Shown here: one piece after another, positions 18,338 through 64,000 of the stretch
Position numbering within the stretch: position 1 is the stretch's first letter
Layout: each line of letters opens with the position of its first letter
Assembly: GCA_016931935.1 (NCBI GenBank)
Contig: JAFGDW010000300.1
Coordinates: forward strand, 55,274-119,273
DNA: 64,000 bases
Direction of reading: 5' to 3'
Source of the DNA: Candidatus Zhuqueibacterota bacterium
Lineage (GTDB): Bacteria; Zhuqueibacterota; Zhuqueibacteria; Thermofontimicrobiales; Thiofontviventaceae
Program-made: the position numbers and the translations under genes
Notes under the pieces: model-generated
Database searches by the model: none
What the model was told of the DNA's origin: nothing
What the model saw: only the letters and a program-made list of their open reading frames with translations

Positions 18338-18419
18338 ATTTTCACCTCCTGATAAATGCGAGACGAACAGTTTAATTAACTAAATATTTTGCAGAAAGTC
18401 AACATCTTTTTCAGATGGC

Positions 18420-21778: not shown

Positions 21779-22018
21779 GGTTGCTCCTGTTTCCTGATCC
21801 GATTTGTTTGATAAGTTAAACTGAGAGCGATTTTTAATGGTTCCCATCAAAGTGAATTTCTTTTCGCGTGAAGATGTTTCTTTTATAAAACAAACGTTTG
21901 AAATAGTCGTGAAATTTTATAAGTCGAATGAAAAATCATGAACGAGCTGTCGTGTTACTCATTGTCTTTTGAACTTGCGTCCGTTGGCCATTGTCCGTTA
22001 TCCGTTATCCGTTCATCT

Positions 22019-35093: not shown

Positions 35094-35461
35094 TTATATT
35101 GCAATGATATTCCATTATGAATATTCCGGTAGAGAAAATTCATACCATATCCAGTTTCCCTATCCTCCCAACAAATCTCATATCCACCAATCGCCAAATA
35201 AGGCATTCCCAAATCGATAATAGTTTATAATTTTATCCAACATCTTCAGGTAATTCTTTCATCTATCTTCTGCCATACGGACGTTTCCTCCATTAATTAA
35301 AAAATCTTCATTTTGTTCAACAATTGTTATTTTTTCAATTCGAAAAACGATGAAGTATAAATGGAAGCATATCCGAATTACCAAATCAATGTCGGTTTCT
35401 GCAATTTTTTCTTGTGGGAAGCAGAACTGCTTATTTACTAATCAGAGGAGGCGCTACGATC

Positions 35462-38400
35462 ATGCAACAGTACAAAAAATTATTCATAATTACTCTTGTG
35501 TTATTGAGCACGATATTTTCAATGCAGATTGCGCTGGTTGCCCAGGGACAGCCACCGGAGTCGCCCAAAGGCCCGATGGGCATCCCCTTTATGCTTGCAT
35601 TTATGCCTGGCGACAGTGCTAAAATCCCGGTTGAATTTTTTGAATCCGTACCTGCCGATTCGCAGGTCAGCGGTTTTGCCTTTACGTTAGTAAAGAATTC
35701 CAGTGATCTTAAATTTCACGGAGTTGACACAGCAGCTACTGCGCTGAGCCATTGGACAGTTGATTACACCATGTCTGGTGACTCAATTCGAGTACAAGCA
35801 AACGCTCCGGGTGGAGTTTACTTTACGAAACCAGACGGCCCTCCAGCATTGCTTTGTGCTATCCGAGGCATGATCTATCAGGGCGCTGCCGTAGGTGACA
35901 GCATTGGCCTGCAGATTCGCCATGTGTCGATAGTAAAGAAGGGCCAGACGGTGGCGCTACCGGATTCAATGTTTGGCCCATCGATGATAAAATTACAGAC
36001 AGGCGATACTCCTCCACAGCCAGGAAATACAATCGCGTTTACATTTCTCGATACCCAATCGTGGCCTGATTCCAGCTTTAGCATTGATTTTGCCGTTACC
36101 GAGCCGGTTCCTGCGGATTCACAGGTTAGTCGCATTCGCGGAGTGATGGAAGCGATACCAAACGAAGTCATGTGGTCCAGCAGCGAAAGCATGTTGTCGC
36201 CCCAATTCAGTGGCTGGTCACTTATCGTTACACCCGAAAGCGGCCTCGTTGAGTTCGATCTCGAAGCGCCGAATGGAACATATCTCGTCCATGATGGGAA
36301 CGATCCATTTGTTATCTTCAGTCTTGGTGGGAATATATTGTCAACATCGATGCCCGGGACTAATATTGAAGTGCAAGCAGACCGATTATTTCTGACAATT
36401 AAAGGTACAGAATTGGTGACGGATCCGGATAAGGTGCATTCCGGTTTTATCAAGATCATGGGCGATGAACCGCCTCCACCTCCGCCGGGGAACGAATTGT
36501 CATTTTCGTTTGGCCATAGCTTTTCCAAACCGGACTCAGGCTTTGGTTTGGATTTCATGATAACGCAACCGATTCCCGCTGATTCCCAACTTATTCGAAT
36601 TCATGCGAAAGTTGTTGCCAATCCGACCGAGGTCATTTGGACATCCAACGGTCAAATTTTGGCGCCTGAATTATCAAATTGGGCATTAGACATCATCCCC
36701 GGTGATGAATTTGTCGAATTCGAATTAATGTCTATCGATGGTTCCCCGCTTGTGCATGATGGGCAAGATCCATTTATTGTGTTTAATCTTACGGGCGTCG
36801 TTAAGGGTTACGCCACTCCGGATCATGCGATTGAAGTAGTCGCAACTGAACTCGAGCTTGAAGTCAATAATAAAGTCGTAACTGCCGATCCACAAATAAT
36901 CATGCCCGGCAAAATTATGTTGGATGATGGCGAAAATCCGCCTCCACCACCCGATCACGGATACTTATTTTCGTTTAATGAAGCCATATCGGACCCCGGA
37001 TCTTATTTTAATTTAATGTTCGCGTTAACAAGCCCGGTGCCACCGGATTCGCAATTAAGCCGTATCCGCATGGTTGTGCAGAGCATGCCGCCAGCGTTAA
37101 ACTGGGCCGAAACAGGGCATTCACTTCAACCAATTATGAGTGATTGGACATTAACGGTGACACCGGGACCGGAAGCCACCGAATTTGATCTTGTCGCTCC
37201 GCCGGGCGTTTTCCTGGCAACTGATTCATCCATGTCTGGGTTGAATTTAGTTCTGTTTAGCGGTGAAGTCGCACCAGATGCGCCGGCTCAGGGGATGGTT
37301 GATGTTCAGGCCAAAGAACTGTTCCTGACACTCAATGGCGTCGAAAAGACGATCGATCCGATAACTGTTCAACCGGGAAAAGTTTTACTCGGCAATGGCG
37401 AAGAACCACCACCAGGGCAACAATCCCTGTTTGCATTTTTCGATACATTCTCCAAACCGGATTCCAACTTTGCAATGGAATTTGCCATTACACAACCAAT
37501 TCCCGCCGACTCACAGTTAAGCCGGATTTGTGCAGTCGTTCGGGCGATGCCACAGGAGCTGGATTGGTCGCCAACCGGGCACATGCTAGCACCAGGCATG
37601 GAAAGCTGGAGCTTGAATGTAACGGTAGGCAATGATTCGATGATGTTCGATATCCAGGCGCCAACCGGCCAATTCATCACACATGATGCGATGGTGCCGC
37701 TCGTGCTTGCAACATTCGTGGGGGGTGTTCGCCCGTCAGCATCGGTTGAACAGAATATTGAAGTCAAAGCGGAAAATCTAAAGCTGACCATCAAGGGTAT
37801 AGAACATGAGTTTGATCCCGGAATGATTCAACCGGGCAAAGTGCGGTTGAATAATAATCCCGATGGTCCGCCACCGGGAGGGGAATCACTGTTCATATTC
37901 TTCGATACAAACGCTGAACCCGGAACTGATTTTCTGCTTGATTTTGCCGTTGCCATGCCGGTTCCGGCAGATTCAGAAATTAGTCGCTTACAGATCGGCT
38001 TAAAAATTGAACCGAATTTATTGGTGTGGAACGCCGATGAATCAAAAGTCGCCGAGGAGCTTGCGGATTGGACGCTTACATCCACTGCGGCAGGAGATTC
38101 AATGGAGTTCGATTTGCAGTCGACAAGTGGCAGCTTTCTGGTGCATGATGGATTCGATCCATATCGGATTGCTACGTTAGCCGGTTCTGTTCAGGCAAGC
38201 GCACCACAAAATGCCATTATTCAATTAACAGCGACAAAAATTTATGTAACTATGCACGGTGTTGTAACATCAATACCACCGACGTCCATCCCCCCGGTAA
38301 AAATTATGCTCGGTGGTCATGTTGGTCCACCTCCGCCGCCTCCACCGCCTCCGCCTCCAACACCAATTTCATCGGGCGATGGCCGCATGAATCTTGGATT

Positions 38401-49841: not shown

Positions 49842-50762
49842 TTAATCGTTCCAGGAAAGTATTTTCATTATTTTTTTACTGCCGCCTACATCACCAAACA
49901 ATTCCAGGTACTCCGGATTATATTGAATCGACACATGATTTCCGGTACCGGAAATGTCACCATTGGCCAAAATGCCGCCTACAACAGAACTCTCTGATGG
50001 AGAACCTCCACCGGTAAAATCCATTTCATAAATAACTTCTGATGTCGGATTTAACATATAAAGTACGCCTTCTACACGTGCAGATCCATTAATAACTATA
50101 TCTTTTTCCACGATAAAAATGCCATAAATATGTGTTCCACCACTGACTTTCATATCGCCTTTAATGTAGGTAATATTGGGAATTCCGGCTGCAGAATCGG
50201 CGTAAAAACTGCCATTGGGATATCCATCAGGAGGTTTGACCAGATCATTTGGATCGCCAAAATAATGCCCCTGAGAATCTGCCTTTGTTGCGAGGCCAAG
50301 AATATCAATGTATGGCATTTCACTGGCATTTGTCACCATGAGTGTGCTGTCGACATTGCGATTTTCGTCGAGCGGGGTAACTTTGTCAACATCACCGGTA
50401 GCATAAATTGCTTGCAGACCGACTTCAGATGTCAATTTCAAATCAACAGATACCTGATTCGTATAACTAGCCACATGTCCGACAGAAGTAAGACGCACAA
50501 GCGAATCCATATCATTGATACTTACTTCAAACGAGCCCTCATTACTGGACGTTTCATCGTACCCATCCCGCCAGTTAAAATTGCGTGAGATTTTTGAGAG
50601 TGCAAGGTTCATTCCGGATGTTGCCATATTCAAAGCGCCAATCTGTCCATATTCTTCAACCATTTGTTCGTGCTGCATTGACATACGATTTTGCTGGGTC
50701 ATCAATCCGGATGTAATTGTAAAGCTGATCCCTGCTAAAATGAGGAGTATTGCTTTTCCCAT
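49842..50762 (-). CDS. PilX-like (type IV pilus minor-pilin/assembly, PilX_N-like) membrane-anchored protein, paralog A
   Basis: 306 aa. N-terminal anchor MGKAILLILAGISFTITSGLM, followed by ...ALNMATSGMNLALSKI (PilX_N-like A..AEaG..A helix). C-terminus VEGVLYMLNP...GGGSPSESSVVGGILANGDISGTGNHVSIQYNPEYLE is typical of PilX-like proteins. No prepilin-peptidase G/FTLIE motif. Confidence 0.4.
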   Translation of the reverse strand: MGKAILLILAGISFTITSGLMTQQNRMSMQHEQMVEEYGQIGALNMATSGMNLALSKISRNFNWRDGYDETSSNEGSFEVSINDMDSLVRLTSVGHVASYTNQVSVDLKLTSEVGLQAIYATGDVDKVTPLDENRNVDSTLMVTNASEMPYIDILGLATKADSQGHYFGDPNDLVKPPDGYPNGSFYADSAAGIPNITYIKGDMKVSGGTHIYGIFIVEKDIVINGSARVEGVLYMLNPTSEVIYEMDFTGGGSPSESSVVGGILANGDISGTGNHVSIQYNPEYLELFGDVGGSKKIMKILSWND

Positions 50763-51203: not shown

Positions 51204-52118
51204 TTAATCTTTCCAGGTAAGAATTTGCATAACTCTCTTGCTCTGCCCAATCGAGCCAAATAATTCCATGTATTCTGGCTTATATTGTACCGAAATATGA
51301 CTTCCAGTTCCGGATACATTGGCGTTTGCCAATACCCCACCAACCACAGAGCTCTCTTCAGGGGTACCACCACCTAATGCTGTCAAATCGTAATAAACTT
51401 TTGCGGTAGGATTAAGTAAATACAAAACTCCTTCGACACGAGCTGATCCGTAAAGGATAATATCCTTTTCAACAAGAAAAATTCCGTATATTCTACTTCC
51501 ACCCTGAACTTTCAGAGTACCTTTGATATATGTAACATTCGGAACGTTCCCGACCTTATAAAAACTCCAGTTTGGGTAGCCGTCGTAAGGTTTGATTATA
51601 GCAGACGGGTCTCCAAAAAATTGGTATTGACTTACTGATAATTGTATCAACGGGACCAGATTTAACAATGGCATGGCATCGGCATCCTGAATCAATAAGG
51701 TGCTATCGACATTTCGATGCTCATCCAAAGGTATGACGTTATCTACCGTCGCCGTCGAATAAATCGCATATCGTCCGGCTTCTGTGGTTAATCGTACATC
51801 CACCTGAACTTTATTGCTAGCACCTGATGAATGACCTGTCGACGTAATCCTTACGAGTGAATCCATGTCATTGACTTGCACATCAAATGACCCTGATGAA
51901 ACTGAAGTCTCGCTATAACCTTCCCGCCACGTATAATCACGTTTAATTTTAGAAAGCGCCAGATTCATCCCCGAAGTTGCCAAATTCTTTGCGGCTAATT
52001 CTTCGTATTGTTCAACAACAATTTCATTTTGTTCGCTGATCTGTTTTTGGTGATTTACCAATCTGGTTGAAAAAGTAAAACCAAGACCAGCAATTATCAT
52101 TAACATTGCTTTGCCCAT
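51204..52118 (-). CDS. PilX-like membrane-anchored protein, paralog B (~55% aa identity to paralog A)
   Basis: 304 aa, same architecture. Shares LATSGMNLALSKI..., SGSF.V.VNDMDSLVR.TS.GH, NVDSTL, NVTYIKG.LKV.GG..IYGIF.VEKDI...GSARVEGVLY.LNPT and ESSVVGG.LAN...SGTG.H.S.QY.PEY.ELFG with paralog A. Confidence 0.4.
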   Translation of the reverse strand: MGKAMLMIIAGLGFTFSTRLVNHQKQISEQNEIVVEQYEELAAKNLATSGMNLALSKIKRDYTWREGYSETSVSSGSFDVQVNDMDSLVRITSTGHSSGASNKVQVDVRLTTEAGRYAIYSTATVDNVIPLDEHRNVDSTLLIQDADAMPLLNLVPLIQLSVSQYQFFGDPSAIIKPYDGYPNWSFYKVGNVPNVTYIKGTLKVQGGSRIYGIFLVEKDIILYGSARVEGVLYLLNPTAKVYYDLTALGGGTPEESSVVGGVLANANVSGTGSHISVQYKPEYMELFGSIGQSKRVMQILTWKD

Positions 52119-52399: not shown

Positions 52400-53071
52400 T
52401 TAGTTAACATTTGTATTCGTCAATGGTACGAAGACTGTATCATGCACCGACTTATAAATATAAATACAATCGCGGTAGACGGTATCGGTTTCCGCTTTAA
52501 TATATTCTACCATTTTATCCGGTAGTCGCGCTGCCTGGTCAGGTATTTCCATCAGGCGATTTTCATTATAACTCCACAACTCAAAAATCACCGTTGAGGT
52601 ATCCCGTTCAAACCGGATTTTAATAGGATAATCTTTGTAATTCTTGTTCAGGCCAGTAAGAATCGATCCGAAAATATTGTACGCCGGTCGATTATTTTCA
52701 TAATCTTCCAAAATACTAATATCTTTATTTTGAGCGGTGATTTGAAAGTTCGCAGTAAATTTCCACTGGTTCATTTTCGCCTGTGCCTTATCGCTGACAT
52801 ACTGAAGAAAATAAATTTGATCCGATGGATACAGCCGTACAATATCATTTTCCCCAAAACCATTCAGGCTGACGTCGATGATATCCATGCGCGTCACCAG
52901 CGTTTCGGGAATAAAAAATTCATCGAGAAAAAATTTGATAAGCTTACCGTCTTGAATCGTGACCAACGGTACACTGGTTTGATTGACAATTAATTCATCG
53001 CCGGCGTGAACCGAAATTGTTTGAATCAAGAATATAGTACTAATAAAAAAAAGTACGATCATTGATCGCAT
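52400..53071 (-). CDS. Hypothetical secreted protein (last gene of the exbBD-containing operon)
   Basis: Start set at MRSMIVLFFISTIFLIQTISVHA (signal peptide), 10 nt after the upstream gene's stop. The track ORF extends 43 codons further into the neighbouring gene. Confidence 0.45.
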   Translation of the reverse strand: MRSMIVLFFISTIFLIQTISVHAGDELIVNQTSVPLVTIQDGKLIKFFLDEFFIPETLVTRMDIIDVSLNGFGENDIVRLYPSDQIYFLQYVSDKAQAKMNQWKFTANFQITAQNKDISILEDYENNRPAYNIFGSILTGLNKNYKDYPIKIRFERDTSTVIFELWSYNENRLMEIPDQAARLPDKMVEYIKAETDTVYRDCIYIYKSVHDTVFVPLTNTNVN

Positions 53072-53081
53072 TTCGTGCTCC

Positions 53082-54119
53082 TTATCGCATGGTTTTCGTT
53101 TTTGCAGTTGTCCACCATGATAAAAATATTTTATAAAAATCTTCGGTGACTTCAGGGGTGGGTGTTTTTTGTTGGGAAATAAATGATGAAATCGTGCCAT
53201 CAGCAGCCCGTTTGATTGAGCCCAGCCGTAAGTAGTTGCTTTTCTCTTTCAATCCGCTATCGATGAGCAGCGTTAAATTATTTCGTTCGATTAAACAAAT
53301 TCGAATTTCCAAAATATTTATTTTGCACAGCAAAAACAACTCGTATACTTTTGAATTTATTTCAAACCGCGTATGTGACGTAAGATTTCCCGGCTCATAA
53401 TTTAAAAACCGTTTAAACACACTGCTAAATACCACGGGATTCGATTGCATCCACTGAATCAATTCGTGAATAATTGGCGATAAATCCTTTTCGTTTTCCT
53501 TAATGTCATCCGGGCGCAATTCAATTTTTATAATTTCCGCATCGGGGATTGCCTTGTCTACTTCCAATTTGTTAAATTGCGTTGGTGCAACAAACCGGAA
53601 TGCCTGCAAATCCAGCGGGGTGTCATCCGGCAAATCGACGATAATTTGTGGCACCTGTCCGGCTTCGGGAAACGGCACATCGTGCAGACTGGCGTATTCG
53701 GCCTGCTGCATCGAGACATTTACCTGATTCTTTGGCTGTTGATGCCGGGCGAACTGCATTTGCCGATCCACTCGCTCAGTCTGTGGAACAGCCAGCGCCT
53801 GGTATGTTTTACGGGGAAGGTCCAGCTTGCTGGTGATGTCCGCATCCAGCGATTCAATTGACGGGATAATAATTGCATTGTCGCGGTATCGCGTGATTTT
53901 GTCATCGGGCTGCGGTAATCGTGAATGGCCGGTTTTCTTTGGCGTTGTTTCTTCAATATGAAAAATTGTCCAGTCGATTTCTTTCTGTGGTGCACGAAAC
54001 AGATACTTCCCCGGAGATACCCGGATTCCGGCGAGTAACAAGTAGGTAAAAATCAACCCGATCATTAATATAAGATCGCAGATGCGTTTTTCTATTTTAA
54101 CACGATCACTAAATTTCAT
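53082..54119 (-). CDS. Membrane-anchored hypothetical protein in the TonB position of an exbB-exbD-exbD operon, with no recognisable TonB C-terminal domain
   Basis: 345 aa. N-terminal TM ICDLILMIGLIFTYLLLAGI and a modestly Pro/Gln-rich middle. Its start overlaps the exbD stop by 11 nt. Confidence 0.45.
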   Translation of the reverse strand: MKFSDRVKIEKRICDLILMIGLIFTYLLLAGIRVSPGKYLFRAPQKEIDWTIFHIEETTPKKTGHSRLPQPDDKITRYRDNAIIIPSIESLDADITSKLDLPRKTYQALAVPQTERVDRQMQFARHQQPKNQVNVSMQQAEYASLHDVPFPEAGQVPQIIVDLPDDTPLDLQAFRFVAPTQFNKLEVDKAIPDAEIIKIELRPDDIKENEKDLSPIIHELIQWMQSNPVVFSSVFKRFLNYEPGNLTSHTRFEINSKVYELFLLCKINILEIRICLIERNNLTLLIDSGLKEKSNYLRLGSIKRAADGTISSFISQQKTPTPEVTEDFYKIFLSWWTTAKTKTMR

Positions 54120-54510
54120 AATGAATGCTCTTGGGAATGCCGTTCATTTCACACAGGTCAATCAGATCGACGGTTGTTTGAATCATTGTATTTTCGTCCG
54201 GGTAGATTATCACCATCATATCCATGCCCTGCGCACGCCAATCGTCACGCACACGCTGGATCAATGCATCGACATCGGATATTTTGGTGATCAATGGCCA
54301 AAAGGTATCACCGCATGATAGCTGGAATTCGGTATCGCTATTAACGCGAATGGTTAATACCTGTCGTTTGACAATCGCCGGACTTTCGTTTCCACCGGTA
54401 GGAAGTTTAATTTGGGTTTTGACAGTAAAATCGGAAATACCGATAAAACCGAGTAATAATATCAACACAACATCAATTAACCGAATGATGAGACCACCTT
54501 TGCTGAACAT
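54109..54510 (-). CDS. exbD: ExbD/TolR biopolymer transport protein
   Basis: 133 aa. GGLIIRLIDVVLILLLGFIG TM plus an ExbD periplasmic domain. Confidence 0.8.
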   Translation of the reverse strand: MFSKGGLIIRLIDVVLILLLGFIGISDFTVKTQIKLPTGGNESPAIVKRQVLTIRVNSDTEFQLSCGDTFWPLITKISDVDALIQRVRDDWRAQGMDMMVIIYPDENTMIQTTVDLIDLCEMNGIPKSIHYEI

Positions 54511-54567: not shown

Positions 54568-54966
54568 TCATTTCCCTTTCCGAATCACATCAATGCCTTT
54601 CAGCAACTGCCGCTGATCACAAAGGTTTGCCAGTGCGATGGTGTATTTTATCGGCGTATCCCAATTCGCGCGAATTTGCACCCGTGGCCGTTTTTCAGAA
54701 TCTTCCAGGCCAGCGAGCTGTTTGTCTATATAGCCAACAAGTTCATCATGGGACGTGAGCGTTTGCGTTTCATTGTCCACAAGAAAATTCCCATCCCGAT
54801 TAATCCCGATAATTAAGGTTTCCCCGTTTGACGGATTGGTAAGTGGCGTGGCTTCACTCGTTGGCAGCTCAATTTGACTATGCCGACTGATTTCACTAAT
54901 GGAAATAAAACCAAATAACAGAATCAGCACCACATCAATCAGCCGAACGATTATTCCACCTTTTTG
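54568..54966 (-). CDS. exbD: ExbD/TolR biopolymer transport protein (second copy)
   Basis: Start at MQKGGIIVRLIDVVLILLFGFISI. Paralog of the downstream exbD. Confidence 0.8.
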   Translation of the reverse strand, partial: QKGGIIVRLIDVVLILLFGFISISEISRHSQIELPTSEATPLTNPSNGETLIIGINRDGNFLVDNETQTLTSHDELVGYIDKQLAGLEDSEKRPRVQIRANWDTPIKYTIALANLCDQRQLLKGIDVIRKGK

Positions 54967-54970
54967 CATG

Positions 54971-56473
54971 CTATTGCCCCAATACTTCAAATTCTATTTT
55001 GGAACGACGCAAGCCCTTGGCGGTCACAACGATTGAATTGAATCCCGGCTCGGTATTCAGTGTGAAATAACTTTTGGCATATCCGTTTGAATCGGTTTGT
55101 GCAACATAACTATTGCGATTGCCCGGGAAGTACCCTTTCCCCATTTTGACTTTAAAAAGCACAGTTTCATTGGGAATCGGATTCTTGAAACAATCGAGTA
55201 ACTGGACAACAAACGGTTCACCAATTTCCCGACCTGCGGGTAAATTTTGATGATTCCCGGATACATATTTTAGCTCGGATGGATCTGCCGGACGCCCCAG
55301 TGCTTCAAACTGGACAAATTTACCGTTATTGTTCAGCCGGGCATTCACAATATTAGTACCGGCAACATTGCCCAGTGTCAGATATGTTTCCGCCAGCCCT
55401 GCTTCATCGGTCAAAATTTCTTCAACTTTATTGCCGTTTTTAAATGTACCGTTGCCATTTTCAATTTTGAAAGTAACCAGTTGATGGATCATACTGTTTC
55501 CGTCTTCATCGTGTACTTTTACCTGCAACGGTTTTTTAAGACGTGTATTCACGGGCGCCGCCTGATGATCTCCGGCCAGCGGTGCAATTGTCAGGTGCTT
55601 CGGCACGGATTCCGGTTCCGGCGTGACTTTTTTCTCGGAAGTAAATAAGTTCTCATCTTCAAAATCATTAATCTCTGCTGCTTCATGTTGCGGCGCTTGA
55701 TAGCGGAAACCTTGTTGCTGGGAGATGAGCAACCGCAATCTCAATTCTTCACCTTTAGTCAGAATCGTATCCATCTGTTTGCGAAATGCACCCTGCAATT
55801 GGGTTGAGAAAAAATTCAAAACAATACTGACGACCAATCCCATCAACGTGGTGACGAGCGCCAGTCCCATTCCATGGAGTATCACTTGATTGTCGAGATT
55901 TCCACGGAAAAATGTAACGAACATTCCCCAGACAGTTCCCAACAAACCGAGCGCCCCGGCGGTATCCGATAAGAACGATATTTTCGATTGGAATGTGCTG
56001 AATTTATCCTGCTGTAACTGAACATGATTGGTTATTTCGTAATGGGCATCGACCGCCGAATTTGTCGAGCGATACACATTCAGCATGTTCATGTATAGCT
56101 GATGGAGTAAATTATTCGGTGTATTTTGTACTGTCTGTTCGATATGCCGGAGCGATGCCGCTTTTGTATTCAATTCTAGAATATCTTTTGATCGGCGTTT
56201 GTCCATAAGTAAATCGGCATATCTGTAAAGCATTGTGGCTAAGCCAGCGACCAAAACCAGGATAATCACCCAGCGTAATCCACCAGCCAGTCGGGTGATT
56301 TCCCAAATCGATTTAAAATCGGATAACCGGGTTAAAGAGCCGGGATCGACCACTTGAGCAGCGGCAACATCGAGCGTCGAATCGATTGCTGCTGCCGCCG
56401 GGGCGTCCTGGCAGAATCCTTGTGAAGTCACAAGGATTATAAACATCATGAATAGAAATGCAACGCGCTGCAT
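54971..56473 (-). CDS. MotA/TolQ/ExbB proton-channel family protein with a ~230-aa C-terminal extension containing two Ig-like (Big/invasin-like) domains
   Basis: Start at MQRVAF (signal peptide). Three TMs with the ExbB signature AGALGLLGTVWGMFVTFF / GMGLALVTTLMGLVVSIVLNFF. C-terminus LQVKVHDEDGNSMIHQLVTFKIENGNGTF...EILTDEAGLAETYLTLGNVAGTNIV... and a second similar unit ...TVLFKVKMGKGYF...AQTDSNGYAKSYFTL...NSIVVTAKG resemble Big_1-type beta-sandwiches. Confidence 0.7.
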   Translation of the reverse strand: MQRVAFLFMMFIILVTSQGFCQDAPAAAAIDSTLDVAAAQVVDPGSLTRLSDFKSIWEITRLAGGLRWVIILVLVAGLATMLYRYADLLMDKRRSKDILELNTKAASLRHIEQTVQNTPNNLLHQLYMNMLNVYRSTNSAVDAHYEITNHVQLQQDKFSTFQSKISFLSDTAGALGLLGTVWGMFVTFFRGNLDNQVILHGMGLALVTTLMGLVVSIVLNFFSTQLQGAFRKQMDTILTKGEELRLRLLISQQQGFRYQAPQHEAAEINDFEDENLFTSEKKVTPEPESVPKHLTIAPLAGDHQAAPVNTRLKKPLQVKVHDEDGNSMIHQLVTFKIENGNGTFKNGNKVEEILTDEAGLAETYLTLGNVAGTNIVNARLNNNGKFVQFEALGRPADPSELKYVSGNHQNLPAGREIGEPFVVQLLDCFKNPIPNETVLFKVKMGKGYFPGNRNSYVAQTDSNGYAKSYFTLNTEPGFNSIVVTAKGLRRSKIEFEVLGQ

Positions 56474-56489
56474 GTCAATCTCCTTAATT

Positions 56490-58193
56490 TCATTGCCGTT
56501 TCGCATGTCGCACTGCAGGGAGTGACTGAGCCTCCTGCTGTAATTCCGGTGTCATGACCGCCGGCTCAGTCGAAAAGTCAATGCTCGTTCGTTGATGTCG
56601 AGTCACAATTACAAGCTGCCCTTTTGCGGAACGTTGAATATTTTTATTGTCATAAGTCCAGGTGAACTGATAAGAATATACGCCAGGGCGCAGCTTTTCC
56701 ATGATCGGTTTGTCCAGTTCCCATACAATCCGTGAAGGAATCCGGCCAATACCATCAAACCATTGGATGCCCAGCCCCTTGTCATCCTGGATTATCAAAT
56801 GCCACGATTTTGCCCGGCCACGTCGTCCTTTAATGCGGAATTCGATGCGGTCAGGGTTACATTTATAAGATTCGTTCGATTGATTGGTTAATTTCTGATC
56901 ATTTTTTCCCGGCATTGGTAATTTTTCACGGCGGATTCGGGCAGTCGGGATCGCCTCGAGCAACTCGTCCGCTACCTTTGTGGAGTCACGCATTAAAATC
57001 TCCGCGATGCCGTTCGCCGGATCGATCACATGCTGTCCAACCTTTTGTAATGATTGCTGATATGCCGCTGTCAAGATTTCTGTTGAATCCTTTGAACCAC
57101 CAATAAAAACGATATACCGTGTTTGCGATTCTGGAGCAACGGGTTTATTTATTTCAGTTTTTAATGCGGTGGTCAAATGCCGCCACTCACGTTTGTTCAA
57201 TTTTTCATCGACACGCTCTTCAGAACAAATTCGTTGAACCTCAATCTGCTTTACCGAAGCGTCTACCTGAAGCAGTGCATCTTCTACCGGTGGTGCGGCT
57301 TTATAATTGATGATTGGACGTTCATCACCAAAAGCAAATACCAGACCAACCTGATGCGAACCGATGCTGAAATCCTGAAATTCATTCGTCGGATAGTCGT
57401 ACGTGTAGAACATTTGCATACGATCGGCAACACTCAGTCGTCCCTCGAATTCAATACCATCGGACGTATAACCAAAACGTAATATGCCGCGATCGTTAAT
57501 TTTATAGTCAAGCATTCCGCCGAGCGTTTCCTGATCCAGCAGTGTGATACCAGCAGCGAAACTGCCACGCATATAGCTAATGCCAACATCGAGACGATAA
57601 GGCAGGCGCGCGTCACCGCCGACAAGCGATAAATTTGGCTCGGTTAAATTACTCATGCCGACACCGATCCGCAAATCATAGCGCGGCTGAAACAATAAAC
57701 CAACGCCTACACTATGCGCCAGCGATTGCACGCCATTGGCAAATAACGGATCGTTCGCATCACCCAACTGAAACTGATCCTGCTGATACGACTGATAGAA
57801 GATTTGCCACGATGCTCCCACACTTAGCGATTCCAGCAACCGATAGGCTGTCTGTGCCTGAATGTGTGACTGCTGGTACATCGCAATGCCAAATTGCTGC
57901 CCGTTGATACCAATCACCCACTCACGATCCAACAGGAACGGACTGGTAATATTGAAATAATTCGCCCGCAAGCCAAACTTGTCCTGCTCAAGAAAGCCAA
58001 CGTGCAGCATCTTAACACCCAGCGATACATGCCACGGCTGCAGTGCAATCACAGCCGGATTAATCAGCGAACTGCGGCAATCAAACACATCCGCCGGATT
58101 GCTGTCAATCCAATGTTGGGCTTTCAGCGGCCCGACTGCCACAAGTATGCTGATGGTGACAAGAATGAATGTTTTCGGACGATTTAATTTCAT
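56490..58193 (-). CDS. PorP/SprF-like T9SS outer-membrane protein with ~270-aa C-terminal extension
   Basis: 567 aa. Signal peptide MKLNRPKTFILVTISILVAVGPLKAQ. The N-terminal ~290 aa carry ...SSLINPAVIA (family NPAxxG/A motif) and an alternating beta-strand pattern. It lies directly downstream of a type-B-CTD cargo gene, which is the classic sprB-sprF arrangement. The C-terminal part (WHLIIQDDKGLGIQWFDG...PGVYSYQFTWTYDNKNIQRSAKGQLVIV) is beta-sandwich-like. Confidence 0.5.
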   Translation of the reverse strand: MKLNRPKTFILVTISILVAVGPLKAQHWIDSNPADVFDCRSSLINPAVIALQPWHVSLGVKMLHVGFLEQDKFGLRANYFNITSPFLLDREWVIGINGQQFGIAMYQQSHIQAQTAYRLLESLSVGASWQIFYQSYQQDQFQLGDANDPLFANGVQSLAHSVGVGLLFQPRYDLRIGVGMSNLTEPNLSLVGGDARLPYRLDVGISYMRGSFAAGITLLDQETLGGMLDYKINDRGILRFGYTSDGIEFEGRLSVADRMQMFYTYDYPTNEFQDFSIGSHQVGLVFAFGDERPIINYKAAPPVEDALLQVDASVKQIEVQRICSEERVDEKLNKREWRHLTTALKTEINKPVAPESQTRYIVFIGGSKDSTEILTAAYQQSLQKVGQHVIDPANGIAEILMRDSTKVADELLEAIPTARIRREKLPMPGKNDQKLTNQSNESYKCNPDRIEFRIKGRRGRAKSWHLIIQDDKGLGIQWFDGIGRIPSRIVWELDKPIMEKLRPGVYSYQFTWTYDNKNIQRSAKGQLVIVTRHQRTSIDFSTEPAVMTPELQQEAQSLPAVRHAKRQ

Positions 58194-58382: not shown

Positions 58383-61300
58383 TTACCGCGCCAATACCAC
58401 ATATCCCCGCGATACATGGCGATCTCCGTCCTGGAGTACGTACAAATACACGCCCGGTAAAACTAATTGTCGGTCGCGGTTCATTCCATCCCAGACAAAT
58501 GTTGATGCGGATGGGGTATGTAACGTAATGACCGGTCGCCCCTGCATATCAAATACTTTTAATGAAGGGTGACTTAGCTGGAACCGTGAAAAATCAAATT
58601 CCACTTCGTCGTTAAATCCATCATTATTCGGGGTGAACGGATTGCTGCTAAGCCGCAATTCACCTTCGTTGACACGGATATAGATATCCACGACATTGTT
58701 CGTCTCATCAGATTCGGTGATACGATTGTCCGGATCGACGGTAAAACGAATCAGGTGTCTGCCAATTGTATCAAATTGCACGGCTGCATCCATCCTCTGT
58801 TCAAAAGACACTGGCAGATTATTCACTGTTTCCGCGTCGATGATTTCACCTTTGTGTTCAAACTTCATATCGAATGGCTGCTCCACGTCAACTTCGTTCG
58901 CGATCACCTGTCCGTGAACATTCACAGATGAATGAACAAGCAAAGTGGTGCTGTCCGCTGAAATCGACGCCACCAAATCGGGTAACGCTTCACGAATAAA
59001 AAAATACGATTGCCAATTTTGCAGACAATTTGCCGGTTCGCTGAGATCGCATGCATCAACGCGTACAGTCACTTTTTCTCCTGATGCAAAACCTGTATCC
59101 GGTGTGTATTCAATTATAAATTCATTCGGAGTACCGGAAATATCAGGTGTTACATCAATATTATTCACCTGCACCTGAATGCTCTCCTGCGATACGCCTG
59201 CAACATCATCCAATAATCGAAATAGTATCGTCGGTCGGTTCAGTACATTGGTTTCGCCTGGTGCAGGTTGCATATCGACGATGTAGGGCGCAATAGTATC
59301 AACACGCGTCCAAAAAATAAATTCAGCATCGCTTTTGTTCGGCGGCACGATCAAATCGGCTGCATTCGCTGAAATACGGATTTGCTGATTGTATGCAAAG
59401 CGATTTTCGGGCTTCCATTCAACCGTTGTGTATTTGGGTGTTCCAGCAATATTGGGTTGGACAATTTCATTATTCACTCGTAACTGAATCGAACCAGCGT
59501 CCACTCCACTTTGCGTGTCCGTAATTTCAAACTGAAGTGAACTGGTAACAGGAACTTCAACGGCAGAATCGCCGGGTGAAATAAATCGAATAACCGGCGG
59601 CTGCACATCTGTTTCGGGATAAAATACGTATTTTTCCGTCGGCATTATGTTAGGAGTATCCGCAAGGTCAGCAGCGTCAATTTCCACTGTTACGCTGTCG
59701 CCATAAGAAAATGGCGTCGCTGGTTTGTACATTAATTGATAATCATAAACAAAACCGTTAATCATCGGTCTGACTGACCGGCCATTGATGCGCATTTTAA
59801 TTGATTGTAGATCGACACCCGACTGCAAATCCGCCAGATGCACGGCGACGGAATCAGTAATCCGGACATTCGTTTGTCCGGGCGTCGGATGGTGGCCGTA
59901 AGTAAACGGCGCTTGTCTGTCACGTCGGTCAGTCAACTTGAACGTGTAGGTTGAATCCAACAAATTTGCCGGATGTGAAAGATCGCGTGCATGAATCCGA
60001 ACACGAATTTGCTGGCCATGCGCCTGATTGGGTGGCATGTGTGACGACACAAACCAAACATCCCCTTCGCGATGCATTTCCAACACCGATGCCATTGAAA
60101 CGTCGTTCACCACAATCCCAACCGCCGATGTATCGACGCCGGCGACAGCATCCGTTAATCGGAAGGCAATATGGGCGGATGGTAGCACGCCTGTATCTCC
60201 CGGTGCAGGCGTTAAATAGCTCAAAATCGGCGGCTGCTTGTCTTCTATGATTGAAAATGAATAATCATCGGGATTCATCTGATTGGGATGCCGGGCATAA
60301 TCCTGTGCGGTCAGCCGGACAGAGACAATTTGATTGTACTGAAATAGTGTATCCGGTTGCCAGCTTATCCGATACCCCTGACTGAGTTTCTGAAATGATG
60401 GCACGACACTCCCGCCATTCACGCGGAGATTGACGAAACTGGTGTCGACACCGCTCATATCGTCCTGAATAGTCATCGAAATGGCTGTATTTCTGGGCAC
60501 CTGCTCAGCCGACTTTGCCGGTTGGTGCGCCGATGTCCAGGGCGGAAGCGAATCCCGCAATGTATAAAACTGATACTTCAATTCAGATGCATTTCCCGGC
60601 TGGGCCCTATCCTTTGCGGTAATGCGGATATTGATAGTATCATTTTCCATAAATTGCTGTGCTGGGTGAAATGTCAGTGTGCTGCCATCCACAAGCAGCG
60701 GTTCTGCATTTTTGGCATCGACATACAAACGCACATCGGCAACACCCGTGCGATCATCCGTTACTTTGAAAGAAATATTCGTATTCAGTGGGACATTCGT
60801 TTGACCTGCTGTTGGCGATACCGGTGCTATCACCGGTCCCAATGTGTCCTGTGCAATAAAGAATCGATAGAAATAAGGTGGCTGAATCGCATTCGGCGGA
60901 TTTGATTTATCGGCTGCAGCTACTGTGACACTCACGGTATCATTATAGGCAAACGACAATTCGGGCATCAAAATCCGTGTATGCAACATATCGCCATCAA
61001 TTGTCGTTGGCACAAGCGGATTATTCTGCACGTGCACCTGTATCGTGTTCCAATCCACACCAGCGATTGTATCCGCCAGCATAAATTGAATGGCGAGCTG
61101 TTTCACATCATTGGTCGAATTTGCGAGTGGATAAACAGGCACAACCCGGGGGGGCGTCACATCACGTTGCAGGGAAAATTGATACGATTCATCCATAGCA
61201 TTTGGCGTGTATGCCATATCCTGTGCTGTTACACGAACAGTCACATGATTATTGAATAAAAACGGAGTATTCGGCTGCCAGGTGAGCGTAATTATTTTGT

Positions 61301-63224
61301 TCTCAGCGCCAATCTGCATTGCTGGCATCACCGGTGCGTTATTGACCCACATGTGAATCGAATTCACCTCGACGCCACGATAATCATCATGTACCTCGAC
61401 GATAATTGGTTTATCCAGGGGCGCATCCAATGCATCGGCTAATGGTTGCACAGGATTAAGGTAAGGCGCAACCGAATCCGGAAGCATTTTGCCGAGCCCA
61501 TAATACGTAATCAATGTCTTGGATTCACCTGCCTGCATAAACACCGGTTCCCACCACATGGCGACAGCGCTATCGAACGTAATTCTGCTGGTATCGTTAA
61601 GGGTGTAATCCCATGGTTGGCGGAAGATATCGCGCCAGCGCAAAATCGCGAAACGGTCGGGAACCGTCGCATCGTATTTTTTTAGCGTTCCCTGTGCGGA
61701 AAAAATCGTACGGGTTGGATCGCCCTCAATCGCCGTCCACCACTCGGGAATTGCTGCCCCAATAAACTCCTGCTCCATCTGGACAAAATCACCATCCGCA
61801 GTTTTGATGGGCGCACCATCATTTTCACCAAGCATGGTATCAAACAAAATCCGTAACCCAATAACTCTGCCAGCCCCGTTATTGGTAATTGTGTATCTGA
61901 GCTCAGCCGTATCTTCGATTCTATCCACCGACCACTCACTACGCGTCAGCGAAATTGTTTGATCAACACGTACATTCTTGTATGTCCAACTCCAGGTAAC
62001 GGCCGGATCGCCATTTCCCAGTTGAATAGCTGTCGGAATGCTTCGTTGACCGTTAGTCACCACAGCCTCACCCTGGTCCGATCCGAACACTGCCACTTCA
62101 TCTTCAACTTTGAGGGTTGTATATGATGTATGCGGCCAGGGATGGCCGAACAGCAACGGCTTGTTATCGTCCCAGAATGTATTTGGGAGACCTTCCAGCG
62201 TTTGCATGGAGAAATTTGTGCCCGGATATTTATCCGTGACCATCACCTCAATAAATTCATTTTGAATTTTTGTATAAGTCACCGGTGTCAATGAAAAATT
62301 GATATTGGGGATGGTATCACCTGAAGTCACGACAACCGGATATGGAATTTCGGCGGTATGATATTTTGTTGGGTCGACACTGAAAATATATATACGATAA
62401 TTTCCGGGAGCTAATCCTGCTGCACAGTATTCACCGGTTTTCCAGCTACTATTGGCTTCGGAACACCACTGATGCGTTTCCCAATCTTCGACAACCACCC
62501 AGGCAGATATAGGCGCAGCAGGCTGGCCATCGTCCAGTACAAGCCCTTTTATTGCCCCACCTTTAGCCAACTGAAAATCAATATCATCGACCGTGTCACC
62601 AACTGTGACCGTTACCGGATAGGCCATATCCCACGTCGGCGAATTTTTATAGTACGTGGTAATGTAACCGAGTCCCGGATTTCCGGCCAGGATAATATGG
62701 CGTCCCGCTGGCAATGCCGGACTGATATATTCTCCCTGTCGGTTATTCATCGCATAGCCACGATCGATTTTTTCCCGGGCATCATAAAAACCAACATTAA
62801 TCGCATCACGAACTATGTCACCGTTGGGCGTACGTATAATACCCCGGATAAAACCGCCCTGATCGAGATGGAAATCGATACCAGTGATAATACTTTCCGG
62901 ACTTATTTTGATGGTTACAGCATCCGCCGGATTCAGAACGTTATTATAGTACTCATCCACATAATCATCCACATTAACGACTCGAACAATATATTCGCCA
63001 GTCGCGATGGATTGAATACGGTAATGACCGGAGGCGTCTGTTCTGGCGTCATAGTCAAAATGCGTGCCGGCACTCTGCTTGGCGCGAACCACGACATCCG
63101 CTAACGTACGACCATCATAGCTGTATACTGTGCCTTCAATAGTGCCTGCGTGTGCAAATTCATATGAATATAGCATGGCCACGACACCCAAAAGCACACC
63201 GATTCGATGCAAGTGCATTTTCAT
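58383..63224 (-). CDS. SprB-like giant cell-surface adhesin with T9SS type-B C-terminal sorting domain
   Basis: Start at MKMHLHRIGVLLGVVAMLYSYEFAHA (signal peptide). N-terminus has three carboxypeptidase-regulatory-like domains (GTIEGTVYSYDGRTLADVVVRA...TDASGHYRI). Eight ~95-aa SbsA/Big_5-like Ig repeats follow, with consensus D..PP.I....P..G.TNV.....I.F...D..SGVD..SI...VN. C-terminus NPFTPNNDGFNDEVEFDF...VFDMQGRPVITL...WDGMNRDRQLVLPGVYLYVL matches the gliding-motility type-B CTD. Confidence 0.75.
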   Translation of the reverse strand: MKMHLHRIGVLLGVVAMLYSYEFAHAGTIEGTVYSYDGRTLADVVVRAKQSAGTHFDYDARTDASGHYRIQSIATGEYIVRVVNVDDYVDEYYNNVLNPADAVTIKISPESIITGIDFHLDQGGFIRGIIRTPNGDIVRDAINVGFYDAREKIDRGYAMNNRQGEYISPALPAGRHIILAGNPGLGYITTYYKNSPTWDMAYPVTVTVGDTVDDIDFQLAKGGAIKGLVLDDGQPAAPISAWVVVEDWETHQWCSEANSSWKTGEYCAAGLAPGNYRIYIFSVDPTKYHTAEIPYPVVVTSGDTIPNINFSLTPVTYTKIQNEFIEVMVTDKYPGTNFSMQTLEGLPNTFWDDNKPLLFGHPWPHTSYTTLKVEDEVAVFGSDQGEAVVTNGQRSIPTAIQLGNGDPAVTWSWTYKNVRVDQTISLTRSEWSVDRIEDTAELRYTITNNGAGRVIGLRILFDTMLGENDGAPIKTADGDFVQMEQEFIGAAIPEWWTAIEGDPTRTIFSAQGTLKKYDATVPDRFAILRWRDIFRQPWDYTLNDTSRITFDSAVAMWWEPVFMQAGESKTLITYYGLGKMLPDSVAPYLNPVQPLADALDAPLDKPIIVEVHDDYRGVEVNSIHMWVNNAPVMPAMQIGAENKIITLTWQPNTPFLFNNHVTVRVTAQDMAYTPNAMDESYQFSLQRDVTPPRVVPVYPLANSTNDVKQLAIQFMLADTIAGVDWNTIQVHVQNNPLVPTTIDGDMLHTRILMPELSFAYNDTVSVTVAAADKSNPPNAIQPPYFYRFFIAQDTLGPVIAPVSPTAGQTNVPLNTNISFKVTDDRTGVADVRLYVDAKNAEPLLVDGSTLTFHPAQQFMENDTINIRITAKDRAQPGNASELKYQFYTLRDSLPPWTSAHQPAKSAEQVPRNTAISMTIQDDMSGVDTSFVNLRVNGGSVVPSFQKLSQGYRISWQPDTLFQYNQIVSVRLTAQDYARHPNQMNPDDYSFSIIEDKQPPILSYLTPAPGDTGVLPSAHIAFRLTDAVAGVDTSAVGIVVNDVSMASVLEMHREGDVWFVSSHMPPNQAHGQQIRVRIHARDLSHPANLLDSTYTFKLTDRRDRQAPFTYGHHPTPGQTNVRITDSVAVHLADLQSGVDLQSIKMRINGRSVRPMINGFVYDYQLMYKPATPFSYGDSVTVEIDAADLADTPNIMPTEKYVFYPETDVQPPVIRFISPGDSAVEVPVTSSLQFEITDTQSGVDAGSIQLRVNNEIVQPNIAGTPKYTTVEWKPENRFAYNQQIRISANAADLIVPPNKSDAEFIFWTRVDTIAPYIVDMQPAPGETNVLNRPTILFRLLDDVAGVSQESIQVQVNNIDVTPDISGTPNEFIIEYTPDTGFASGEKVTVRVDACDLSEPANCLQNWQSYFFIREALPDLVASISADSTTLLVHSSVNVHGQVIANEVDVEQPFDMKFEHKGEIIDAETVNNLPVSFEQRMDAAVQFDTIGRHLIRFTVDPDNRITESDETNNVVDIYIRVNEGELRLSSNPFTPNNDGFNDEVEFDFSRFQLSHPSLKVFDMQGRPVITLHTPSASTFVWDGMNRDRQLVLPGVYLYVLQDGDRHVSRGYVVLAR

Positions 63225-63720
63225 GATGCTTTGGTGCAATAATCTTGTTTTGGATTTTTTAAAGATAAATAGGATGGACGAAATTATCCTATGTTCCCTT
63301 TCCACGGCTGCAAATATAGGATGGCTTCCTCCATTTGAACTGCTTTATCAACTGGAGGTTTGTAACAAAGATGATAGAACTTGCGACTACATTATAGCAA
63401 AAGGTTGGCTAAAATGCAAGTTTTTTTTACTAAACAGAGATAATTTTATCAATAAATATATTATCTTTATGGGATTATAATAAAATCAAATATATCATTT
63501 CAATAGATACAAAATGTTAACCCAATATTCTCAACCACTAATACGCATCAAAAAAATGTCACCATTCTATCAATATTGTAACTTTTCTTGAATTACCGGA
63601 TTGTAATTCATAAAAAACAATATAGCTATGAAAGATAATTTGTAATCGTTCACAGGGTTTCAGAATGGTACTCCAATTTTTGGTGCCCTACATACTGTCT
63701 TCAGGAAACAGTTGATCAGA

Positions 63721-63787
63721 CAAGGAGATGGGGCGACAAGGTGACAGGGAGAAACAATAAATTGTTTATCATCTCCCCATCTCCTTG
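63721..63787. repeat. Hairpin with 13-bp stem enclosing an AT palindrome, in the 5' region of the adhesin gene
   Basis: caaggagatgggg(63721-33)/ccccatctccttg(63775-87). Inner palindrome aacaataaattgtt(63753-66). Confidence 0.35.
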
Positions 63788-64000
63788 TCACCCTGTCTCC
63801 CACTCTCGATGCCTGGTGTTCTAATATTACGACCGAGCCACGAAAATATTGCCTTCATACACCTGTGAACGGTTACGATAATTTGTATTTTTCAATTAAT
63901 GATGAAGCGAACTTGCTACACCTTATTATTTCAAAATCAGATAGTACGTTTAACGTCAGCGAGCCGTCAAACGGGATGCGCAAGTCAGACAACTTAGTCC

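Follow-up and report, generated by a model that had tools for sequence, protein, structure and literature searches.

In Bacteroidota, type B substrates of the T9SS (type IX secretion system) pass through the SprA translocon and remain attached to a dedicated carrier that is PorP/SprF-like and acts as their surface anchor, and the step requiring energy is the ejection of the carrier-substrate complexes from the translocon (PMC12635249, PMC9143113, PMC12618676). SprF of Flavobacterium johnsoniae, encoded together with the large repetitive type B surface protein SprB, is such a dedicated carrier and anchor, with a periplasmic tail joined to the energy source (PMC12635249, PMC9143113); this tail has a conserved Cys-x-Cys motif forming a disulfide to the moving GldK track (PMC12635249). 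Here, we analyzed a stretch of 64,000 nt from Candidatus Zhuqueibacterota bacterium (assembly GCA_016931935.1, contig JAFGDW010000300.1, positions 55,274 to 119,273 of the forward strand), in the following referred to as the window, in which the gene for a large adhesin-like protein with a C-terminal domain (CTD) of type B, the cargo, is followed by genes for a PorP/SprF-class carrier and an ExbB/ExbD-type motor.

In Porphyromonas gingivalis, porP adjoins porK-porL-porM-porN, and the title of a 2017 study by Vincent et al. reportedly places PorP within a trans-envelope PorKLMNP core complex. PorKLMNP and GldKLMN link a PorP-family barrel to a proton-driven motor of the 5:2 type and to periplasmic and lipoprotein partners (PMC12635249, PMC9389320). 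In PG1035-PorP-PorE of P. gingivalis and Fjoh_3952-3951-3950 of F. johnsoniae, a static type B cargo and its cognate PorP-like carrier are accompanied by a third envelope component, a peptidoglycan-binding lipoprotein, which fixes the fate of the complex (PMC9143113, PMC12618676). Among the proton-driven force transducers, TonB and TolA possess an SHLS motif with a histidine in the membrane helix, and transducers with C-terminal domains other than that of TonB have newly been proposed (PMC12204202).

An initial annotation of the window had described an adhesin of type B together with a partner that is PorP-like, which is an arrangement of a known kind; the motor genes behind the carrier had been overlooked, and the module as a whole is apparently undescribed. 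Our analysis favors, on balance, the reading that an adhesin of T9SS type heads a conserved trans-envelope module with a dedicated proton-driven ExbB/ExbD motor.

Results

The module and its conservation

The module of the window comprises the following genes:

58383..63224, minus strand: cargo, secreted adhesin-like protein of 1613 aa (open reading frame (ORF) and translation, Pfam and NCBIfam matches, about 33 orthologues of the same architecture)
56490..58193, minus strand: long PorP/SprF-class carrier of 567 aa, with a 14-strand barrel (nt 57324-58106), an alpha/beta middle domain and a CTD-like sandwich (nt 56574-56882)
54971..56473, minus strand: ExbB/TolQ/MotA-type proton channel of 500 aa, fused to two C-terminal Big_1 immunoglobulin (Ig) domains (PF01618, PF02369)
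54568..54969, minus strand: ExbD/TolR paralogue 1, 133 aa (PF02472, 44.7 bits; motif RLIDVV)
54109..54510, minus strand: ExbD/TolR paralogue 2, 133 aa (PF02472, 47.0 bits; motif RLIDVV)
53082..54119, minus strand: p345, 345 aa, with an N-terminal membrane anchor, a variable linker and, at the C-terminus, a conserved domain of about 150 aa; the gene shares 11 nt with the end of exbD2
52400..53071, minus strand: p223, secreted protein of 223 aa with a signal peptide, the last gene of the module, found in at least 28 loci

This order, i.e., cargo, long PorP, ExbB-Big_1, ExbD, ExbD, p345 and p223, to which most lineages add a lipoprotein with tetratricopeptide repeats (TPR) before p223, was seen in at least about 45 loci sampled by short peptide patterns, which were from KSB1/Zhuqueibacterota, Calditrichota, Balneolota and metagenome-assembled genomes (MAGs) labelled Rhodothermales. 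Zhuqueibacterota has been proposed as the name for KSB1 (PMC11683472). The roughly 33 proteins with the full cargo architecture share 30-37% identity, and their named sources are KSB1 and Candidatus Zhuqueibacterota. In all four contexts of adhesin orthologues (L003, L004, L005, L006), cargo, long PorP, ExbB-Big_1 and ExbD occurred in this order with differing outer flanks, and the contig of the closest PorP orthologue (L002) also kept this order. In L003 (CP070762.1, a 'complete' genome), runs of N at about 18400-18500 and 20600-20700 lie inside exbD and neighboring genes, and its truncated module, with one ExbD followed by convergent genes, may be an artefact of assembly or masking.

A scan for ExbB-Big_1 with one genome per GTDB species returned at least about 35 full-length loci with the titles KSB1/Zhuqueibacterota, Caldithrix/Calditrichaeota, JdFR-76 lineage, Balneolales/Balneolaceae and Rhodothermales/Rhodothermaceae MAGs, although such titles are unreliable as taxonomy (e.g., 'uncultured Cytophagia' or 'Deferribacteres bacterium JdFR-76'). 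At least one cultured isolate, Balneolaceae bacterium ANBcel3 (L041), also has the module. When the six-frame ORFs were scanned with hidden Markov models (HMMs), the ordered module was present in nearly all ExbB-Big_1 loci wherever the contig reaches. As a control, weaker ExbB matches from Planctomycetota and others covered the ExbB part of the query only. In the reciprocal direction, long-PorP patterns retrieved at least ten loci from JGI metagenome contigs, and in six of the seven loci that reach far enough downstream, ExbB was the next gene. The retrieval routes that worked were the ExbB-Big_1 patterns and an alignment of four Balneolales PorP sequences; patterns from a PorP pair alignment gave no match against genome and metagenome contigs, and broader PorP alignments were too diverse for patterns.

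The first gene of the module encodes a protein ending in a type B CTD, usually preceded by a CARDB domain; CHU_C is always present and the passenger varies freely: it can be of the adhesin type found here, combine propellers of the FG-GAP or PQQ kind with Ig arrays of ASH/HYDIN, or be almost missing. The last case is represented by 'cargo' ORFs of 162 aa in three Balneolales loci (L036, 3933-4418; L039, 2194-2679; L040, 2562-3047), which consist essentially of the type B CTD and a short N-terminal part, suggesting that the conserved function of the module needs no large passenger. Several MAGs contain two modules with different cargo (L011/L029, L012/L019, L016/L030). The TPR lipoprotein of about 520 aa occurs in at least 25 loci, and p345 is conserved in at least 34 module loci.

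From PorP through p223, the genes overlap or are at most 10 nt apart, except for a gap of 57 nt between the exbD genes. The scan for promoter-like sites (27 compared with 27 expected) and terminator-like sites (14 compared with 12 expected) was uninformative on an operon, and an Rfam scan of the whole window gave no RNA family. Taking synteny and gene arrangement together, we consider it likely that the module is one functional unit.

Three loci (L042-L044) have variant modules in which ExbB lacks Big_1. In L043, a protein of 623 aa with the p345 C-terminal domain is encoded between PorP and ExbB; L042, labelled 'Acetofilamentum sp.', is a high-GC variant with ambiguous ORF calling. Type B cargo, PorP and ExbB/ExbD may be linked also outside the Big_1-fused form.

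The carrier

The initial annotation had placed a PorP/SprF partner directly downstream of the cargo gene. A PorP/SprF-class gene does begin 189 nt past the cargo stop: PorP_SprF (PF11751) matched residues 94-285 of the carrier at 35 bits (cutoff 22.3) and was also matched by 42 of 46 carrier relatives. The reading of the partner as an SprF-type protein is, however, not supported, as the protein is about 200 aa longer than the PorP/SprF-like relatives of ordinary length that were recovered (about 300-380 aa), scored 40.8 bits with the NCBIfam PorP model TIGR03519 (cutoff 90.55), and belongs to a group of 46 long PorPs in which no member has a Cys-x-Cys motif after the barrel and no cysteine column is conserved. 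A tether of the SprF-GldK type would therefore be unavailable. By its sequence, the carrier is best assigned to a divergent PorP/SprF subfamily.

In the structural model of the carrier, built on 46 relatives (predicted local distance difference test score (pLDDT) 81.6), a barrel of 14 strands spans aa 54-288 with pLDDT above 90. It is followed by a linker without order, a middle domain of alpha/beta type modelled with lower confidence, and a confident beta-sandwich (aa 438-540). The modelled barrel falls into the class of outer-membrane T9SS carriers with FadL/PorV-class fold, its best structural match besides PorV being the transporter FadL. In a profile-profile comparison, the C-terminal sandwich aligned with the cargo CTD at 96.6% probability (E-value 5.9e-10, 52 columns) with a common W-D-G...P-G-x-Y-x-Y signature, indicating that this domain is homologous to the type B CTD of the cargo. 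A few carrier relatives match FlgD_ig or CHU_C directly, and profile matches of the carrier C-terminal domain to the PorU CTD and FlgD in the PDB were weak. The periplasmic extension as such gave no Pfam match at E-values up to 10 and no credible PDB sequence match.

An exhaustive profile search with the carrier yielded 332 cluster representatives at E-values up to 1e-3, and barrel and C-terminal domain occurred together in 107 of the best 150 of these, indicating a sizeable subfamily rather than a single unusual case. The exhaustive search was needed for this result, as a word-indexed search with a single PorP sequence or a five-sequence profile returned only two to three proteins. Because of homology and adjacency, the two proteins were assigned the roles of type B cargo and cognate carrier, which are very probably correct; the two genes show conserved adjacency, and the carrier would bind and anchor its cognate cargo.

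The motor and the accessory proteins

The ExbB part of the third module protein matched PF01618 with 54.4 bits, and the following region matched Big_1 (PF02369) with 48.5 bits in two stretches. The fusion and its end motif (...AKGLRR.KIEFE.LGQ) are kept to the last residues across phyla. A signal peptide and three transmembrane segments, the last of them followed by a stretch rich in K/R, indicate that the Big_1 domains are cytoplasmic, a location which is unusual for Big_1. Domains of this invasin/intimin type would thus be on the cytoplasmic side of a stator-like pentamer. The transmembrane aspartate of the proton relay is kept in both ExbD proteins. With the equivalog models for exbB, tolQ, tolR and motA, the motor proteins scored far below the cutoffs, indicating that the motor is no orthologue of any of these named systems.

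The gene for p345 is located at the place of tonB in exbB-exbD-exbD-tonB clusters. For p345, neither Pfam nor PDB gave a match even at E-values up to 10, the C-terminal domains of TonB (TonB_C) and TolA were not found, and none of three orthologues had a histidine in the membrane helix. By analogy in gene position and topology, p345 is a candidate for the force transducer of the module.

The proteins encoded at the position of p223 in L004 and L005 are 60 and 41% identical to p223, respectively, for which no Pfam match at E-values up to 10 and no credible PDB match was obtained. Matches of p223 to CENP-N (E-value about 0.004) look like chance. From its signal peptide, p223 would be located in the periplasm.

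The cargo protein

The cargo ORF runs from the ATG at 63224 to the stop at 58383; a GTG at 63305 marks the limit of the mechanical ORF, and public gene calls for an identical contig begin at the ATG. The NCBI product name is carboxypeptidase regulatory-like domain protein, from candidate division KSB1 bacterium. The protein consists, in this order, of a signal peptide, three CarboxypepD_reg-like domains, a supersandwich head, eight Big_5-like repeats, a CARDB domain and the type B CTD:

63147..63224, minus strand: signal peptide, aa 1-26, ending ...EFAHA/G (sequence inspection; model helix aa 2-24)
62286..63149, minus strand: three tandem CarboxypepD_reg-like beta-sandwiches, aa 26-313 (PF13620 and AlphaFold2 model)
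61485..62282, minus strand: all-beta 'head', a galactose-mutarotase-like supersandwich, aa 315-580 (conserved domain, 265 aa)
58989..61478, minus strand: eight Big_5-like Ig repeats, aa 583-1412 (leave-one-out HMM test, Pfam Big_5)
58689..58982, minus strand: CARDB domain, aa 1415-1512 (PF07705, 35.2 bits, cutoff 22.7)
58386..58646, minus strand: type B T9SS CTD, aa 1527-1613, NPFTPNNDGFND...WDG...PGVYLYVL...GYVVLAR (CHU_C, TIGR04131)

The CTD is nearly invariant across the cargo family. CHU_C (PF13585) matched with 35.0 bits (cutoff 27), residues 1527-1610 of 1613 aligning to profile positions 4-85 of 86. The type B model TIGR04131 gave 28.5 bits (cutoff 35), below its cutoff yet more than any other CTD model of NCBIfam, and the type A model TIGR04183 20.5 bits (cutoff 23); of 30 full-length orthologues, all 30 matched TIGR04131 and five matched TIGR04183 at E-values up to 1e-3. 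The CTD had been called type B by the initial annotation, and the comparison with TIGR04183, which the annotation had named as the check that could overturn this call, came out for type B; type A was rejected on account of the weaker match, below the cutoff, and the five orthologues only.

The N-terminus (MKMHLHRIGVLLGVVAMLYSYEFAHA) has the charged start, the hydrophobic core and the AHA/G site of a Sec signal peptide, as judged by inspection. At E-values up to 0.01, the Pfam families on the cargo were only Big_5, CarboxypepD_reg, CARDB, CHU_C, SdrD_B and fn3_3. SprB repeats were not among them, so that 'SprB-like', taken as homology, was rejected for the cargo. An AlphaFold2 model was built on 31 sequences (mean pLDDT 82).

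The three N-terminal units (aa 26-122, 123-221 and 222-313) matched PF13620 with 39.4, 15.0 and 20.8 bits, respectively, each spanning the full profile, so that the first is above the cutoff of 32.3 and the others, though aligned over the full length, are below. The model has three beta-sandwiches in this region, mostly with pLDDT above 85, in line with the three CarboxypepD_reg-like domains of the initial annotation. The annotation had overlooked the adjoining 265-aa head domain, the best conserved part of the cargo family, and the CARDB domain, which precedes the CTD in most cargoes of the module. The fold of the head is a supersandwich of the carbohydrate-enzyme type, and from the model, a function in glycan binding appears likely.

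The Big_5-like repeats start at aa 583, 688, 793, 891, 995, 1102, 1206 and 1309, with unit lengths of 98-107 aa and a mean pairwise identity of 29%. In a leave-one-out test, each repeat was compared with an HMM built from the remaining seven and scored 59-91 bits, as against at most 8.3 bits for shuffled sequences (50 per repeat). Pfam Big_5 (PF13205) scored 103.2 bits on the whole cargo, and seven of the eight single repeats matched end to end (r3 in the whole-protein scan, six others with 16-26 bits); r5, scanned alone, gave no match to Big_5. Number and family of the repeats had therefore been recognized correctly, whereas the period is about 104 aa instead of the 95 aa given before. Taken together, the passenger reads as three Ig-like spacers, a head of glycan-binding type and a stalk of eight Big_5 repeats and CARDB.

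Probable type IX secretion genes in the window and genes flanking the module

The window encodes the diderm markers LpxC, LpxD, BamA and TamB. A PorV-like protein of 338 aa (20834-21850, minus strand; PF19572, 30.6 bits, cutoff 27), with a weak match to the HMM of the long-PorP barrel, probably serves type A cargo as its general T9SS carrier. A protein of 1814 aa (35414-40858, plus strand) with a Sortilin/BNR-like region carries the type A sorting domain Por_Secre_tail (30 bits) and represents a second, different T9SS cargo. The presence of both genes indicates that the organism appears to use type IX secretion, and the secretion of the module's cargo would depend on it and on the cognate carrier.

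Directly downstream of the module, two paralogues of about 305 aa are encoded (49842-50762 and 51204-52118, both minus strand), which start with the hydrophobic N-terminus MGKA(I/M)L(L/M)I(L/I)AG..., have no Pfam match and, among the loci compared, occur at the window locus only. Upstream of the module, the clade of the window has a Bat (aerotolerance-type) operon (MoxR, DUF58, VWA/BatA, BatD, TPR/SH3) and a TonB_C protein; both are located at 1-3253 in L001, past the right end of the window, and at 1-9581 in L004, and this neighborhood is absent in other lineages. An AT-rich spacer of 770 nt separates the TonB_C gene from the adhesin gene. At 63642-63876 of this spacer, nested inverted repeats have arms of 18 nt (94% complementary) 35 nt apart, flanked by arms of 15 nt 205 nt apart. 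They could terminate the upstream operon, act as a regulatory structure or represent a small mobile element.

Discussion

The window module resembles SprB/SprF in that a large repetitive type B surface protein is encoded with a carrier barrel of the PorP/SprF family. The cargo, however, has passenger domains other than SprB repeats; the carrier is longer, has folded periplasmic domains and lacks the Cys-x-Cys tail; the sprB operon is without the ExbB/ExbD motor genes that the module carries; and the organism, which is uncultured, belongs to KSB1/Zhuqueibacterota and not to Bacteroidota. As in the PorE-like gene sets, a cognate cargo-carrier pair is accompanied by further envelope components, but in place of a peptidoglycan-binding lipoprotein these are the ExbB/ExbD motor, p345 and p223, plus the TPR lipoprotein where present. 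Compared with PorKLMNP/GldKLMN, the motor is by sequence a true ExbB/ExbD instead of GldL/GldM, no GldK/PorK of the FGE-sulfatase type was seen, and no similarity to PorM or PorN could be detected for the accessory proteins. In Bacteroidota, GldLM/GldKN act on the disulfide-tethered SprF, which is the job proposed here for ExbB/ExbD.

The similarity of the motor to ExbB-ExbD-TonB and TolQ-TolR-TolA includes the ExbB-type channel with conserved Thr-rich helices, the two ExbD proteins with transmembrane aspartate, the next gene for a protein with membrane helix, linker and globular domain, and an outer-membrane beta-barrel as the likely target. Different from these systems, the ExbB protein of the module has two cytoplasmic Big_1 domains, p345 is without TonB_C and the SHLS histidine, and the motor would presumably act on a PorP/SprF carrier, which has a periplasmic domain similar to the CTD, and not on a receptor with a TonB box. 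No description of the module was found in the literature searched, including T9SS and force-transducer papers, which is no proof of absence. A study on ExbB and the T9SS in Fibrobacter (PMC6851124) was considered as an earlier description and rejected, as it reports an ordinary Ton cluster different from the module.

We propose that the cargo would cross the inner membrane by Sec, would be routed through the T9SS by its type B CTD and would then stay surface-bound on its cognate outer-membrane long PorP. The proton-driven ExbB/ExbD motor would engage the periplasmic extension of the carrier by means of p345, p223 and, where present, the TPR lipoprotein, and the CTD-like sandwich on the carrier tail may serve as a handle. 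In place of the missing cysteine tether, the motor would in this way provide the carrier-adhesin complex with mechanical energy, either for pulling the complex out of the T9SS translocon or for moving or tensioning the adhesin in the outer membrane. The chance that the motor energizes the carrier-adhesin complex is, in our estimation, close to even but somewhat below.

Several other explanations have to be considered. The locus may be made up of an ordinary type B adhesin with an SprF-like carrier, as in Bacteroidota gliding, and of an unlinked neighboring TonB-type nutrient uptake system consisting of ExbB, ExbD and p345. Clusters of exbB-exbD-exbD-tonB are common in the Fibrobacterota-Chlorobiota-Bacteroidota (FCB) group, the Pfam matches of ExbB and ExbD are conventional, and a separate TonB_C gene is located upstream in the clade of the window. 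An accidental neighborhood is, however, hard to reconcile with a module order that persists through several phylum-level lineages with changing flanks, with overlapping genes, and with the co-occurrence of ExbB-Big_1 and long PorP, both of them unusual, in both search directions; moreover, the module has neither a TonB_C domain nor a TonB-dependent receptor. We therefore consider this explanation unlikely. The same low probability is given to a T9SS-independent, two-partner-like export or anchoring of the cargo, in which the long PorP would itself bring about insertion or translocation of the cargo, with ExbB/ExbD as the power source acting through p345. Such a role would suit a module which looks self-contained, with inner-membrane motor, periplasmic parts, barrel and surface protein, and in which some cargoes are only about 160 aa long, and there is a precedent for Ton-powered secretion in the TonB-dependent Oar/PopC of Myxococcus (PMC6434023). 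Yet the cargo has in its CTD a bona fide T9SS signal of type B, the barrel has the 14-strand fold of FadL/PorV-class carriers, which is no known translocon, and the window, with PorV and a type A cargo, gives indication of an active T9SS.

A Tol-Pal-like envelope tether, with the PorP-class barrel as outer-membrane anchor and the adhesin as a mere passenger, would account for a channel like TolQ, for proteins like TolR, for an anchored protein like TolA and for the resemblance of the TPR lipoprotein to CpoB, and unrecognized motor-driven tethering systems have been argued for in the superphylum (PMC12204202). We regard it as quite improbable, as the type B cargo gene always heads the module, the CTD is the most conserved element of the cargo, the TPR lipoprotein is absent in the clade of the window, and the two modules with different cargo in several genomes fit better with cargo-specific machines. 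Of very low probability, finally, is a device for capture and uptake comparable to SusC/D or TonB-dependent transport, in which the surface protein binds a polymer and the energized FadL-like barrel imports the product. The carbohydrate-enzyme-type fold of the head, the structural match of the barrel to FadL, and a glycosyl-hydrolase-like gene and transporters of the major facilitator superfamily elsewhere in the window would agree with uptake, but the sequence family of the barrel is PorP/SprF, the module has no catalytic domains or periplasmic binding proteins, and the passengers of other lineages are FG-GAP/PQQ propellers and Ig arrays without such a head.

The reading as a type B adhesin-carrier pair with its own motor also has its weak points. 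It is synteny that points to the coupling of motor and carrier, which we accordingly rate at slightly less than an even chance, and it is gene position and topology that suggest p345 as a transducer, the protein being without TonB_C and the SHLS histidine. If the genomes with the module also hold gldKLMN and sprA, the canonical energy chain may suffice. The scores of the cargo with TIGR04131 and of the carrier with TIGR03519 are under the NCBI cutoffs, and the suggested glycan binding of the head is drawn from fold similarity of a model with uneven confidence. The clade of the window is without the TPR lipoprotein of other lineages, a distant long PorP of 795 aa (L096) has no ExbB nearby and is the exception among the seven reciprocal loci, and the locus counts are samples obtained with short peptide patterns and no census.

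So far, Bacteroidota are the only group in which the energizing of type B cargo and carriers has been elucidated; there, a disulfide tethers SprF to the GldK track driven by GldLM. With a tether-free carrier genetically joined to an ExbB/ExbD motor of the classical kind, the module suggests that sister phyla have a second, modular solution. As a tentative and at best possible generalization, several FCB phyla other than Bacteroidota (KSB1/Zhuqueibacterota, Calditrichota, Balneolota and Rhodothermales-labelled lineages) might have a trans-envelope machine in which each type B adhesin and carrier is provided with a separate ExbB/ExbD rotary motor, bearing cytoplasmic Ig domains on its stator-like pentamer, and with novel transducers, as an alternative to GldLM/GldKN for export, gliding-like surface movement or force-bearing adhesion. 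With cargo, carrier, transducer and motor in a compact set of seven to eight genes, these parts are open to joint study, and the cultured isolate ANBcel3 makes the idea directly testable. The module bears on the evolutionary origin of the energy chain of T9SS and gliding, on how wide a range of outer-membrane processes 5:2 motors drive, and on the surface biology of widespread uncultured bacteria of sediments and hot springs.

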